A stretch of DNA of 64,000 nt. Source: Escherichia coli 042. Its GTDB lineage: Bacteria > Pseudomonadota > Gammaproteobacteria > Enterobacterales > Enterobacteriaceae. The DNA lies in NCBI RefSeq assembly GCF_000027125.1, contig NC_017626.1; one strand, 5' to 3'. A program made the position numbers and the translations under genes. Shown here in pieces: positions 32,829 through 63,414 of this stretch. The notes under the pieces were generated by a model that worked only from the letters and a program-made list of their open reading frames with translations, made no database searches and was not told the DNA's origin. How positions within the stretch are numbered: position 1 is the stretch's first letter; every line of letters starts with the position of its first letter.

Positions 32829-33476
<648 letters not shown>

Positions 33477-33630
33477 TTAGGTATATTGATAAGAACAATT
33501 CTTATTTATTTGCTCGCCAGGAATTTTCGGAATAAATATGCTTTTGCATAATTCGATATATAAAGAATGTGTAGAGGAAAAGTAGCGAGAAATTCTGCAT
33601 GGTTATGCATAACCATGCAGAAGTGTAAAT

Positions 33631-34518: not shown

Positions 34519-34870
34519 CCTTTCTCCCACAAATATCTAAACCTAAGTAAAGCGTGGAGTGTACTGGATATACCCAATGCTGGTTGAGCATTTGTTGAAA
34601 AAATTTCCCCCCGTTTTGACTAAAATGCGCCAGGATTGATGGAATCATTAGTCTGATGATTAGGAATAATCTGGATGAATGACAGGGAAAACATGCGTAA
34701 TACTTACGCAGTTCTCTGAAAAAGTGATTTAAATTTAGATGGATAGCGGTGTATGGAAACGTTCTGTTACATGAAATGGCCCGTTAGACATCACAAATCG
34801 CGAAGAGTTTCCCATTAATTTTTGATATATTTAAAACTTAGGACTTATTTGAATCACATTTGAGGTGGTT

Positions 34871-35386: not shown

Positions 35387-35401
35387 TCACTTCGGTGATA
35401 T

Positions 35402-35436
35402 AAAAAATCCGCCTCTCGGGGCGGATTTTTTGTTTT
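35402..35436. terminator. Bidirectional rho-independent terminator shared by ompX and opgE
   Basis: aaaaaatccgcctctcggggcggattttttgtttt: GC stem flanked by an A-run and a T-run. Confidence 0.7.
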
Positions 35437-41976: not shown

Positions 41977-42020
41977 GTTATTATCAGTAGCCCTGATATG
42001 GTCAGGGCTACTGAAACTGA

Positions 42021-53836: not shown

Positions 53837-55375
53837 ATGGCAAGAGCTGTACACCGTAGTGGGTTAGTGGCGCTGGGCATTGCGACAGCGTTGATGGCAT
53901 CTTGTGCATTCGCTGCCAAAGATGTGGTGGTGGCGGTAGGATCGAACTTCACCACGCTCGATCCGTATGACGCAAATGACACGTTATCTCAGGCCGTAGC
54001 GAAATCGTTTTACCAGGGGCTGTTTGGTCTGGATAAAGAGATGAAACTGAAAAACGTGCTGGCGGAGAGTTATACCGTTTCCGATGACGGCCTTACATAC
54101 ACCGTGAAATTGCGGGAAGGAATTAAATTCCAGGATGGCACCGATTTCAACGCAGCGGCGGTAAAAGCGAATCTGGACCGGGCCAGCGATCCGGCGAATC
54201 ATCTTAAACGCTACAACCTGTATAAGAATATTGCCAAAACGGAAGCGATCGATCCAACAACGGTAAAGATTACCCTCAAACAGCCGTTCTCAGCGTTTAT
54301 TAATATTCTTGCCCATCCGGCGACCGCGATGATTTCGCCGGCAGCGCTGGAAAAATATGGCAAGGAGATTGGTTTTCATCCGGTGGGAACCGGGCCGTAT
54401 GAACTGGATACCTGGAATCAGACCGATTTTGTGAAGGTGAAAAAATTCGCGGGTTACTGGCAGCCAGGATTGCCCAAACTGGACAGCATAACCTGGCGTC
54501 CGGTGGCGGATAACAACACCCGCGCGGCAATGCTGCAAACCGGTGAAGCGCAGTTTGCTTTCCCCATTCCCTACGAGCAGGCCGCACTGCTGGAGAAAAA
54601 CAAAAATATCGAGTTGATGGCCAGTCCGTCAATTATGCAGCGTTATATCAGTATGAACGTGACGCAAAAGCCGTTCGATAACCCGAAGGTCCGTGAGGCG
54701 CTGAATTACGCCATTAACCGCCCGGCGCTGGTGAAAGTGGCCTTCGCGGGCTATGCAACGCCAGCTACTGGTGTGGTACCGCCGAGTATCGCCTACGCGC
54801 AAAGTTATAAACCGTGGCCTTACGATCCAGTGAAAGCGCGCGAATTACTGAAAGAGGCGGGATATCCCAACGGTTTCAATACCACGCTGTGGTCGTCACA
54901 TAACCACAGCACCGCGCAGAAAGTGCTGCAATTTACCCAGCAGCAGTTAGCGCAGGTCGGGATTAAAGCCCAGGTGACTGCGATGGATGCCGGACAGCGG
55001 GCGGCAGAAGTTGAAGGTAAAGGGCAAAAAGAGAGCGGCGTGCGGATGTTCTACACTGGCTGGTCGGCTTCAACCGGCGAAGCGGACTGGGCACTATCGC
55101 CGCTGTTTGCCTCGCAGAACTGGCCACCGACGCTGTTTAATACCGCGTTTTACAGCAATAAACAGGTGGATGACTTCCTGGCTCAGGCACTGAAAACTAA
55201 TGATCCGGCAGAAAAGACCCGTTTATATAAGGCGGCGCAGGATATCATCTGGCAAGAGTCGCCGTGGATCCCGCTGGTGGTAGAAAAACTGGTGTCGGCA
55301 CACAGTAAAAACCTGACCGGTTTTTGGATCATGCCAGACACCGGTTTCAGCTTTGAAGACGCGGATTTGCAATAA
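53837..55375 (+). CDS. gsiB: Glutathione-binding periplasmic protein GsiB
   Basis: 512 aa from ATG 53837 (MARAVHRSG...) with signal peptide; the ORF-track start at 53570 is an extension. Confidence 0.95.
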
Positions 55376-59760: not shown

Positions 59761-61089
59761 ATGTCCAGAATCAATAAGTTCGTACTTACAGTCAGTCTGC
59801 TGATTTTTATCATGATTTCAGCAGTTGCCTGCGGGATCTACACTCAAATGGTAAAGGAACGGGTGTATGGCCTGAAACAGTCCGTTATTGATACTGCTTT
59901 TGCGGTGGCAAATATTGCTGAATATCGGCGTAGCGTGGCAATTGATCTCATCAACACGCTAAACCCCACGGAGGAACAGCTGTTGGTTGGCTTGCGCACA
60001 GCTTACGCCGACTCGGTTTCACCCTCTTATTTGTACGATGTCGGTCCTTATCTGATTTCCAGTGACGAATGTATTCAGGTAAAGGAGTTCGAGAAAAATT
60101 ATTGTGCAGATATTATGCAGGTTGTGAAGTATCGACATGTCAAAAATACAGGGTTTATCTCTTTTGACGGTAAAACTTTCGTCTATTACCTCTATCCGGT
60201 AACTCACAATCGCAGTCTGATATTTTTGCTTGGTCTGGAGCGTTTTTCTTTACTGTCAAAATCGCTGGCGATGGATAGCGAGAACCTGATGTTCTCTCTG
60301 TTTAAGAACGGTAAACCGGTGACCGGTGATGAATATAATGCTAAAAACGCCATCTTCACCGTTTCGGAAGCGATGGAGCACTTCTCCTATTTGCCGACCG
60401 GATTGTACGTATTTGCGTATAAAAAAGATGTTTATTTGCGGGTTTGTACGTTGATTATTTTCTTTGCCGCATTGGTGGCAGTGATATCGGGTGCCAGTTG
60501 CCTCTATCTGGTACGCAGAGTGATTAATCGTGGTATTGTGGAGAAAGAAGCCATTATTAATAACCATTTTGAACGCGTACTAGATGGCGGGCTTTTCTTT
60601 TCGGCTGCCGATGTCAAAAAACTCTACAGTATGTATAACTCGGCGTTCCTGGACGACCTGACTAAAGCGATGGGCAGAAAATCCTTTGACGAAGATTTAA
60701 AAGCGCTACCGGAAAAAGGTGGTTATTTGTGCCTGTTTGACGTCGATAAATTCAAAAACATCAACGACACCTTCGGTCATTTGCTGGGCGATGAAGTGTT
60801 GATGAAAGTGGTGAAAATCCTTAAATCACAGATCCCGGTAGATAAAGGTAAAGTCTACCGCTTCGGCGGTGACGAATTTGCGGTGATTTATACGGGTGGA
60901 ACGCTGGAAGAGTTGCTATCGATTCTAAAAGAAATCGTTCATTTCCAGGTGGGAAGCATTAATTTAAGCACCAGTATCGGTGTAGCGCATTCAAATGAAT
61001 GTACTACCGTCGAACGCTTGAAAATGCTGGCGGATGAGCGGCTGTATAAGAGTAAGAAAAACGGCAGGGCGCAGATTAGCTGGCAGTAG
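59761..61089 (+). CDS. dgcI: Diguanylate cyclase DgcI (YliF; GGDEF domain)
   Basis: 442 aa; RFGGDEF motif near the C-terminus. Confidence 0.93.
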
Positions 61090-61103
61090 AATTAGAATAG
61101 TGT

Positions 61104-61129
61104 TAGTACCCCTTAATCAAGGGGTACTA
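61104..61129. repeat. Perfect 11-bp-stem hairpin between dgcI and the toxin-antitoxin module
   Basis: tagtacccctt-aatc-aaggggtacta; no flanking T-run on either strand. Confidence 0.5.
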
Positions 61130-61158
61130 ATGAATGTGGTAAATCATTTGCAAACATT

Positions 61159-61488
61159 TTACTTTGCAAAAACTTCCGGTCCTTTTATTGCCAATGTATT
61201 CAAAATACGTAGTGCCGGGCCGCTCGGTTTTATTTCATTTCGTTCCCATTTCGAGACACTTTCTTTTGACATTCCCATTGTATGTGCCAGCACGGATTGT
61301 GACATGCCGTATCGGGTGCGGATGGCTTTGATCTCTTCACCCGTCATTGATTTGACTTTGGCTATACGGGCGCTGACTTCACGAGCTTTGACCATGACGG
61401 CAATGGCATCAACTTCACTATCAGACATCAGGCCCAGTGCATTCAGTTCCTTTGCATCTTCCAGCATCATTTGTAATTTATCGCTCAT
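61159..61488 (-). CDS. XRE-family helix-turn-helix antitoxin candidate (HigA-like)
   Basis: 109 aa; HTH segment MSQSVLAHTMGMSKESVSKWERNEIKP; GAGGTG RBS; overlaps the upstream toxin-like ORF by 11 nt. Confidence 0.7.
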   Translation of the reverse strand: MSDKLQMMLEDAKELNALGLMSDSEVDAIAVMVKAREVSARIAKVKSMTGEEIKAIRTRYGMSQSVLAHTMGMSKESVSKWERNEIKPSGPALRILNTLAIKGPEVFAK

Positions 61489-61864
61489 TTTTCACCTCAA
61501 TCAAAAAGCCAGTTTCGATCAAATCCTCTATTTGCTTATTGCTAAAGGCCAGAAATGCATTTGCCATTTTTTTGTAGGCCACCAGTTCATCATCTTCGAT
61601 TTCTTTGGTTCCTTTACTGCTTAGACCACTCTTGGACCAACCATCATAAAAAAACACATGATTTGCTGATTTAAAAAAGATAATTGTTCTGGCTCCACCA
61701 CTCTTTCCTTGTTGGAGGGGTAAACGTTTTTTGATGACACCGCTACCTAAATCAGCCTCCCATATGCCTTGCATCACTTCTTCAGCGGCAGCCATGAGAA
61801 CTTTATCGTGAATACCAAGTTTTTTCGTGCTTTGGCTGAATCGTCTTGCCTTATACACACCCAT
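61478..61864 (-). CDS. Type II toxin candidate, RelE/ParE superfamily (HigB/Gp49-like)
   Basis: 128 aa; AGGATGG RBS; toxin-first arrangement with a downstream HTH partner as in higBA; family assignment is from memory. Confidence 0.65.
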   Translation of the reverse strand: MGVYKARRFSQSTKKLGIHDKVLMAAAEEVMQGIWEADLGSGVIKKRLPLQQGKSGGARTIIFFKSANHVFFYDGWSKSGLSSKGTKEIEDDELVAYKKMANAFLAFSNKQIEDLIETGFLIEVKNER

Positions 61865-61879
61865 ACATCCATCCTTGTG

Positions 61880-61905
61880 GTAATGTTTACTATAGTAACC
61901 ATTAC
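61880..61905. promoter_or_regulatory. Candidate operator of the toxin-antitoxin operon
   Basis: gtaatgtttactatagtaaccattac, 24 of 26 positions palindromic, 16-40 bp upstream of the toxin start. Confidence 0.45.
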
Positions 61906-62088
61906 GCTTATTTCAAGTAATTGCGATCAAAACTTTAATTTGGTGTGAAAAAGTGAGAGTTGCCTCGAGTATGATTCATTTTTCTCGATTTATACGTCAG
62001 GGGATTTTGTGCGTAAGGGTAGGACATGGGAAGGGTAGCAGAGGCAGATCGAAGAACAATATCCTTGTTAGATCTGCCTTTAGATTAA

Positions 62089-63414
62089 TTAAACCCGGCT
62101 ACCCCACAAATCGTACTCATCGGCGTGCTCGACTTTCACACGCAGGATATCACCTGGCTTAACGTTGGTTTCACCATTGAGATAAACCGCGCCGTCGATT
62201 TCCGGTGCATCTGCCATGCTGCGACCAATCGCGCCTTCTTCGTCCACTTCGTCGATAATCACCAGAATTTCACGGCCCACTTTCTCTTGCAGGCGCTCGG
62301 CGGAAATCTGCTGCTGCAGCTGCATGAAACGGTTCCAGCGTTCTTCTTTCACTTCTTCCGGAACCTGGTCAGGCAGGGCATTGGCGTCCGCACCTTCAAC
62401 CGGGCTGTATTTAAAGCAGCCAACGCGATCCAGACGTGCTTCTTTCAGGAAGTCGAGTAGCATCTGGAAATCTTCTTCCGTCTCGCCAGGGAAGCCGACA
62501 ATAAAGGTTGAGCGTAAGGTCAGTTCCGGGCAGATTTCGCGCCACTGTTTGATGCGCGCCAGTTGGCGATCTACAGAACCCGGACGCTTCATCAGTTTGA
62601 GAATGCGCGGGCTGGCGTGCTGCAACGGAATGTCCAGATACGGCAGGATTTTGCCTTCTGCCATCAGTGGGATGACGTCGTCCACATGCGGATAAGGGTA
62701 AACGTAGTGCAGACGTGTCCAGATCCCCAGTTTCGATAACTGTTCGCACAGGCTGACCATGCTGGTTTTTACCGGCTCGCCGTTGTGGAAGCCAGTACGA
62801 TGTTTAACATCGACGCCATAGGCGGAAGTATCCTGCGAGATCACCAGAATCTCTTTAACGCCCGCATCAACCAGACGTTTAGCTTCACTTAACACTTCGC
62901 CGATCGGACGGCTCACCAGGTCGCCGCGCATAGACGGAATAATGCAGAAGGTGCAGCGGTGATTACAGCCTTCCGAAATTTTCAGATAGGCATAATGACG
63001 CGGCGTCAGTTTCACACCTTGTTCTGGCACCAGGCTCAGGAATGGGTTGTGTTTCGGTTTTGGCACGTAGTGATGAACGTGCTCCAGAACCTGCTCATAG
63101 CTATGAGGCCCGGTGATTTCCAGCACTTTCGGGTGGACTTCGCGGATCTGATCTTCTTTTGCCCCCAGACAACCGGTCACAATTACCTTGCCGTTTTCAT
63201 TCAACGCTTCACCAATGGCTTCCAGTGATTCTTGTACCGCGCTGTCAATAAAGCCGCAGGTGTTGACGATCACCATGTCCGCATCGTCATAGCTCGGTAC
63301 CACGTCATAACCTTCAGTGCGTAGTTCGGTGAGAATACGCTCTGAATCGACAAGGTTTTTCGGACAGCCAAGGGAAACAAAGCCGATTTTCGGCTGGGGA
63401 GTTACTTTGCTCAT
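62089..63414 (-). CDS. rimO: Ribosomal protein S12 methylthiotransferase RimO (radical SAM)
   Basis: 441 aa; CNHRCTFC radical-SAM cluster. Confidence 0.96.

Follow-up and report, generated by a model that had tools for sequence, protein, structure and literature searches.

The dgcI and rimO genes, which lie near the end of the window (i.e. the whole 64-kb stretch of DNA analysed, 64,000 nucleotides), flank a two-gene toxin-antitoxin cassette (Table 1). The toxin gene comes first, overlaps the antitoxin gene by 11 nt and is separated from rimO by a spacer of 224 nt. Its start codon, the minus-strand ATG at 61864, agrees with the RefSeq annotation of identical loci. The cassette was found in 1138 of 5426 complete E. 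coli genomes, always at the dgcI-rimO site, and the carriers (about one in five complete genomes) include O157:H7, O55:H7, IAI39 and APEC strains. RefSeq labels its genes 'RelE/ParE family toxin' and 'helix-turn-helix domain-containing protein' and nothing further, and a literature search for publications on the cassette locus found none.

Table 1. Positions of genes and sequence elements at the dgcI-rimO site, numbered from the first letter of the window.
Feature	Position	Strand	Remarks
dgcI	59761-61089	+	
Toxin-antitoxin cassette, approximate extent	61093-62078	.	~985 bp; replaces the 46-bp dgcI-rimO spacer of K-12 MG1655
Antitoxin gene	61159-61488	-	109 aa; N-terminal helical region and C-terminal Cro/C1-type HTH (HTH_3, E 1.9e-9)
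Toxin gene	61478-61864	-	128 aa; HigB2-like, RelE superfamily (Pfam PF06296, E 2.3e-32)
Shine-Dalgarno sequence AAGGA	61872-61876	-	Read from the sequence; 7 nt before the toxin ATG
26-bp dyad, proposed operator	61880-61905	-	Coding strand GTAATGGTTAC TATA GTAAACATTAC
Promoter-distal arm GTAA-ACA-TTAC	61880-61890	-	Second 4-N3-4 palindrome; over the predicted transcription start
Predicted transcription start region	61881-61884	-	Inferred from the position of the -10 hexamer
Dyad centre ACTATAGT	61889-61896	-	Holds the -10 hexamer TATAGT (61894-61889)
Promoter-proximal arm GTAA-TGG-TTAC	61895-61905	-	11-bp 4-N3-4 palindrome of its own; within the -35/-10 spacer
-35 hexamer TTGAAA	61911-61916	-	Promoter scan; 16-nt spacer to the -10 hexamer
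15-bp arms of the 30-bp duplex of the proposed operator			TAGTAAACATTACCA and GCGTAATGGTTACTA
rimO	62089-63414	-	bssR next in gene order

Several observations concern the cassette as a unit. Between the convergent stop codons of dgcI and the antitoxin gene, a 12-bp stem without mismatches and a loop of 4 nt make up a hairpin (TTAGTACCCCTT AATC AAGGGGTACTAA, 61103-61130); it belongs to the cassette DNA, and a T-run is absent on both of its sides. A second hairpin with 15-bp arms (62042-62079), situated directly 3' of the rimO stop codon, is likewise cassette DNA, replaces the dgcI-rimO hairpin of K-12 and probably serves as the rimO terminator here. Two E. coli strains carry a damaged toxin gene next to a preserved antitoxin gene: in XYEH3934 codon 5 of the toxin is changed from TAT to the nonsense codon TAA, and EFF60 has lost the promoter, the operator and the 5' end of the toxin gene to an IS1 element. 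Two database records call for comment. The 1.2-kb contig JAIJJM010000872.1 of a 'Collinsella sp.' metagenome-assembled genome is 99-100% identical at the protein level to E. coli dgcI-toxin-antitoxin DNA and was, judging from this identity, probably mis-binned. CP088669.1, held in the plasmid collection, is a 730-kb E. coli record that bears the chromosomal locus.

The toxin scored 112 bits against PF06296 (cut-off 27), and a family profile built from 22 homologues retrieved V. cholerae HigB-2 as its top match in the PDB (E 0.0025). In the AlphaFold model of the toxin (pLDDT 83), the five best Foldseek matches were all HigB2 chains, with TM scores of 0.43-0.51 when normalised to the query and 0.51-0.61 when normalised to the target. 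Four of the five HigB2 active-site residues (list taken from PMC10098735), namely K49, R51, R64 and K84, align with residues that are invariant in the family of the toxin studied here (K45, R47, R59 and K78, respectively), and toxin Y82 aligns with W/Y. The toxin thus combines the PF06296 domain, the HigB2 fold and the catalytic residues of a HigB2-type toxin, and differs from V. cholerae HigB2 by extra C-terminal helices (128 aa versus about 110). For the antitoxin, sequence matches in the PDB placed the P22 C2 repressor ahead of HigA-2. In its model (pLDDT 89), helices at the N-terminus precede an HTH domain of five helices, and this C-terminal domain superposes on that of HigA2 with 1.2-1.3 Å over 61-62 residues; MqsA and P22 c2 are further relatives. 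Among the members of the antitoxin family, the recognition-helix region (S/T)(K/V)(E/D)SVSKWER is nearly invariant.

The layout of a HigBA2-type locus, i.e. a toxin gene in first position and an antitoxin with an N-terminal toxin-binding region and a C-terminal HTH dimerisation domain, is found here, and the two genes overlap as they do in V. cholerae higBA2. HigB2 and HigA2 of V. cholerae (PDB 5JAA, 8A0W and 8A0X; PMC5416850, PMC11006873) are the best fold matches of toxin and antitoxin among solved structures, while the fold alignments show low identity (toxin 12-16%, antitoxin 22-28%). Based on the protein matches of both partners, the locus is a type II module of the HigBA2 type with the toxin gene in first place, and a distant one. 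The toxin is closer to ToxP of the Coxiella burnetii QpH1 plasmid (35-37% identity, E 1e-14 to 2e-15), which is encoded together with AntitoxP (CBUA0028/CBUA0027). Two other assignments were considered and rejected. The locus is not an mqsRA operon: the antitoxin reached 47.1 bits against TIGR03830 (cut-off 61.8) and 20.6 bits against PF15731 (cut-off 30), with the C-terminal HTH part alone being aligned, and none of its 109 residues is a cysteine. Salmonella SehAB was discarded as a characterised relative, since SehB is an antitoxin of about 140 aa of the K-12 HigA type and belongs to a different family.

The initial annotation had pointed out a near-perfect palindrome upstream of the toxin gene. 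This description holds: GTAATGTTTACTATAGTAACCATTAC is the window sequence at 61880-61905, and its reverse complement agrees with it at 24 of 26 positions, corresponding to 12 of 13 arm pairs without any spacer; the sole unpaired pair is formed by positions 7 and 20. The location given for it, 16-40 bp upstream of the toxin start, was correct, while the extent was short by one position (16-41 nt, a trivial off-by-one), so that 15 nt separate the palindrome from the first base of the toxin ATG. Three gap-free dyads of equal quality are present in the 64-kb window, against a mean of 0.06 and a maximum of 1 per window in 100 first-order Markov resamplings in which the dinucleotide frequencies were kept. 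The chance of meeting such a dyad in a resampled intergenic region of 224 nt was about 5e-5.

In the E. coli lineage, each arm of the dyad is a small palindrome in its own right (GTAA-N3-TTAC). When the window was searched with the family consensus GTAA-N5-ACTATAGT-N5-TTAC described below, the dyad was the single match and showed 0 mismatches. The unit GTAA-N3-TTAC alone matched four times, including the two arms of the dyad, as compared to 0.7 matches expected. The two isolated matches, at 34697-34707 and 54263-54273, are probably due to chance but could be secondary antitoxin targets. Extra operator copies or a wider regulon inside the window were considered and dismissed, because the full motif is unique and the two stray GTAA-N3-TTAC units occur near chance level.

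A consensus scan of positions 61000-62150 identified TTGAAA-16 nt-TATAGT on the minus strand, with 10 of 12 consensus matches, as the best sigma-70-like site, and it is the only good one upstream of the toxin gene. The palindrome had been expected to overlap the promoter, and it does so closely in this prediction: the dyad axis coincides with the middle of the predicted -10 hexamer TATAGT, and TTGAAA is located 16 nt upstream of it. The dyad begins 5 nt past the -35 hexamer and stops at about the predicted +1; the distance from the -10 hexamer to +1 usually amounts to 6-8 nt. The G in TATAGT deviates from the sigma-70 consensus. As the hexamer lies within a symmetric sequence, a divergent promoter on the plus strand was considered as well, but was rejected since a usable -35 hexamer is absent and the plus-strand scan was empty. 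A stretch of 61 bp comprising promoter, operator and leader was 100% identical in 1122 of the 1135 E. coli genomes carrying it. The operator is invariant within E. coli, yet 0 differences in 61 bp are not significantly below the approximately 5 differences in the 249 bp of the remaining spacer; variation within E. coli is therefore too low to be informative.

Transcription of rimO proceeds on the strand of the cassette genes and runs towards them, so that both arms of the palindrome would be part of any read-through RNA, and an RNA hairpin formed in this way might terminate or attenuate rimO read-through or structure the leader of the toxin mRNA. We regard this as scarcely credible. The predicted fold is weak (-7.7 kcal/mol, z-score +0.48) and 145 of 200 shuffled sequences folded at least as well. 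No U-tract follows the palindrome, which the terminator scan did not report, and no match in Rfam was obtained at E<=1. The predicted transcription start lies inside the distal arm, so that the cassette mRNA itself would be without the hairpin, and a terminator function is more plausible for the separate hairpin behind the rimO stop codon.

To compare the site across related loci, one genome per species was scanned with an alignment of antitoxin homologues, which yielded 55 loci, nearly all of them from Enterobacterales. A dyad with three conserved blocks, (CC)GTAA-N5-ACTATAGT-N5-TTAC(GG), was present at the same place in 38 of 54 related loci, in other Enterobacterales and in varied genomic contexts. 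When the 130 nt preceding each toxin homologue were searched for palindromes with no motif given, this dyad ranked first in most loci. At least 13 of the 16 specified consensus positions were matched in 36 of 42 loci with a toxin homologue, versus 14 of 8800 shuffled upstream regions. Where a toxin homologue was not detectable, the dyad was absent in 10 of 12 loci. In order to avoid circularity, the sites were re-anchored on the 8-bp centre alone, giving 36 unique sites. In this alignment the outer positions G1, T2, A3, A4, T24, A25 and C26 carried 1.1-1.6 bits, whereas the N5 blocks and the flanks carried 0.1-0.5 bits. The outer block pairs were complementary in 28-31 of the 36 sites. Part of this conservation could be inheritance, given the shared ancestry of the loci; the N5 blocks and the flanks, however, have diverged freely.

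These data also bear on the possibility that the DNA is a promoter only, whose symmetry arose by accident from an AT-rich -10 region (CTATAG being self-complementary) and is read by no protein. The centre of the dyad is indeed a good -10 hexamer, short palindromes are frequent in AT-rich promoters, and promoter-like sites are no more common in the region than in shuffled sequences (2 versus a mean of 2.1). But the symmetry reaches 13 bp to each side of the axis, and the outer GTAA and TTAC blocks fall into the spacer and onto +1, where sigma-70 has no sequence requirement. It is precisely these outer blocks that are conserved and symmetric among the unique sites, whereas the N5 blocks between them have drifted. 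The -10 hexamer reads TATAGT in 28 of 38 related sites and the preceding AC is nearly invariant; together, these bases make ACTATAGT a perfect palindrome. A TTG-type -35 hexamer at a distance of 16-18 nt was seen in 18 of the 38 sites. As far as can be judged from these alignments, the retained non-consensus G points to selection for symmetry beyond promoter strength alone, and we consider an accidental symmetry highly improbable.

Another explanation is that the dyad is bound by a protein other than the cognate antitoxin, such as a host regulator, or that it serves the cassette in recombination or insertion, the cassette being indeed an insertion relative to K-12. The dyad is, however, located about 175 bp inside the cassette and off its boundary, and a second copy is absent from the window. 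Only one of the related loci has rimO nearby, which indicates that the dyad is carried along by the module, independently of the chromosomal position, and a copy is also present on a conjugative Providencia plasmid. The occurrence of the dyad with the module in many genera, contexts and plasmids makes a host-specific factor unlikely. In addition, the dyad occurs together with the antitoxin gene even where the toxin is lacking: two solo antitoxin genes, in Silvania confinis (L046:1942-1967) and Xenorhabdus khoisanae (L049:1956-1981), keep the promoter and the dyad directly upstream although the toxin gene is cleanly missing. These two loci tie the dyad to the antitoxin, and a different binding protein or a role in recombination is very unlikely in our assessment.

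The conserved DNA blocks of the dyad are in agreement with the nearly invariant recognition-helix region of the antitoxin family. A covariation between antitoxin residue 74 (K/V) and an inner base of the dyad (T/G, position 9) was visible, but was not used since it is confounded by phylogeny and has exceptions (L029 and L038). Very distant PF06296 modules on Agrobacterium, Coxiella and Hydrogenophaga plasmids have other recognition helices and also a dyad placed on a TATAGT-type -10 hexamer; the respective sites are AGCACTATAGTGCT, TCACTTAGTGA followed by TATAGT, and ACTATAT...ATATAGT. TATAGT hence recurs across proteobacterial classes.

From the comparison of these sequences, the palindrome very probably serves as the operator through which a chromosomal type II toxin-antitoxin cassette of the HigBA2 type, situated as an insertion between dgcI and rimO, regulates itself. 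The suggestion of the initial annotation that an HTH antitoxin would use this DNA for autoregulation thus gains support from comparative evidence, namely a conserved dyad at the predicted promoter and a HigA2-like antitoxin. The elements expected of a type II operator are in place: an inverted repeat right upstream of the first gene, its overlap with the predicted core promoter and a DNA-binding antitoxin. Five lines of evidence support the operator reading, i.e. the position of the dyad on the -10 hexamer, the HTH antitoxin encoded downstream, the conservation throughout the family, the retention of the dyad in the absence of the toxin and the repression by relatives in a like manner.

Repression of this kind is documented for V. 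cholerae higBA2, where DNA footprinting and a co-crystal structure showed that the operator extends from after the -35 hexamer over the -10 hexamer (PMC11006873). The locus studied here likewise has a single dyad reaching from just after the -35 hexamer across the -10 hexamer, although the promoter is a predicted one. In gel-shift assays, Coxiella AntitoxP shifts its own promoter PtoxP, either alone or in complex with ToxP (PMC10098735). In the HigBA2-type module of an A. baumannii plasmid, HigA2 represses its own promoter with the toxin acting as corepressor (PMC5906591), so that the promoter is repressed by the antitoxin and more so by the complex; the operator is undefined in that system. 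The position and role proposed for the dyad are thus the very ones that experiments have established for the HigBA2 family.

The mechanism we propose is as follows. The dyad would span the DNA between a point just downstream of the -35 hexamer and the predicted transcription start, with the -10 hexamer at its exact centre. The antitoxin, with or without bound toxin, would attach to the dyad through its dimeric C-terminal HTH, most likely as two dimers with one on each 11-bp GTAA-N3-TTAC arm beside the central TATA. The bound antitoxin would keep RNA polymerase off the cassette promoter, and depletion of the antitoxin would lead to derepression of the operon.

The DNA sequence that is recognised differs from that of the V. 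cholerae system. HigA2 protects 24 bp containing TGTACGC-N5-GCGTACA (PMC11006873), a repeat of 19 bp, whereas the site described here, GTAA-N5-ACTATAGT-N5-TTAC, comprises 26-30 bp and three conserved blocks; the V. cholerae operator sequence is not found at the locus. The base-contacting residues R68, E71, N72 and R77 of HigA2 (PMC11006873) are replaced by E, S, K and E in the antitoxin. Due to these differences in operator sequence, spacing and contact residues, DNA specificity cannot be transferred by homology, and with neither the V. cholerae operator nor its reading residues matched, the locus represents a distant family member with a specificity of its own.

How many antitoxin dimers would occupy the dyad is a separate question. 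The GTAA-N3-TTAC mini-palindrome in each arm suggests two of them, and we tentatively propose that in the Enterobacterales branch the operator consists of two MqsA-like 4-N3-4 units arranged around a shared -10 TATA, such that two dimers would clamp the -10 hexamer. E. coli MqsA (PDB 3GN5, 3O9X and 3FMY) is, like the antitoxin studied here, the antitoxin of a toxin-first operon, and its C-terminal HTH is related to it (TIGR03830, E 1.8e-12; fold match 3fmy, TM 0.78). MqsA binds AACCT-N3-AGGTT (PMC4894380), i.e. a site with the same geometry of half-site, N3 and half-site as each arm of the dyad, although the half-site is ACCT in the former and GTAA/TTAC in the latter. The mqsRA operator itself was rejected as an identity of the arms, which share its 4-N3-4 geometry but not its half-site. 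The two systems differ further in that the antitoxin at this locus has no zinc-finger domain at its N-terminus and the toxin resembles HigB2 instead of being an MqsR. The Coxiella promoter provides a second parallel, having a TATAGT -10 hexamer abutted by an 11-bp 4-N3-4 palindrome (TCAC-TTA-GTGA). It differs from the site described here by its single unit without a second arm, another half-site, another recognition helix and its location on a plasmid, and the Coxiella operator has never been mapped.

The alternative is one antitoxin dimer at the centre of the dyad, comparable to HigA2 on its 7-N5-7 site, with contacts to approximately TGGTTAC-TATA-GTAAACA, in which case the outer GTAA and TTAC blocks would be touched by the N-terminal region or through the backbone only. 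The close superposition of the C-terminal domains of the antitoxin and HigA2 is consistent with this arrangement, and so is the HigA2 precedent, in which the 24 protected bp hold a single dimer site and the disordered N-terminus adds fuzzy DNA contacts (PMC11006873). The pattern of conservation argues against it: the best-conserved bases are found at distances of 0-4 and 10-12 bp from the axis, and conservation is lowest at 5-9 bp, the positions into which the recognition helices of a HigA2-like dimer would insert. Besides, some loci retain one full arm unit and have lost the other; in L017/L018, L009 and L051 one GTAA-N3-TTAC unit is still perfect and the TATA centre is kept, but the second arm is degenerate. 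We consider occupation by a single dimer possible but rather doubtful. Binding of two dimers is favoured by the geometry of the arms, the loci with a single arm, the single unit in Coxiella, the MqsA site and the pattern of conservation with its three blocks spaced about 11 bp apart. A clade of the Pantoea/Erwinia type speaks against two dimers, as the inner arm halves are GAC/GTC there instead of TTAC/GTAA and the arms are not self-symmetric. If two dimers do bind, the architecture would depart from that of V. cholerae HigA2 with its one 7-N5-7 dimer site, and the -10 hexamer would be dual-coded, its non-consensus G being kept for the symmetry required by the repressor.

The analysis provides a concrete prediction of operator and promoter for an uncharacterised cassette that is widespread in E. 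coli, and the family consensus can be used to annotate operators of this type across Enterobacterales. The proposed operator would be the second one for the HigBA2 family and is built differently from the V. cholerae site, which is the only one defined structurally. The general understanding of toxin-antitoxin autoregulation is unchanged by it, self-repression on the own promoter being the ordinary arrangement.

Other dyads were encountered elsewhere in the window. The window-wide palindrome count revealed near-perfect inverted repeats with short spacers and 12-13 of 13 arm pairs at 35401-35432 and 41984-42014. The best dyad of the whole window is a perfect 30-bp palindrome at 33592-33621 (TTCTGCATGGTTATG and CATAACCATGCAGAA forming its two halves), which is situated in an intergenic gap between open reading frames whose ends are at 33455 and 33631 and has the appearance of a further operator-type site.
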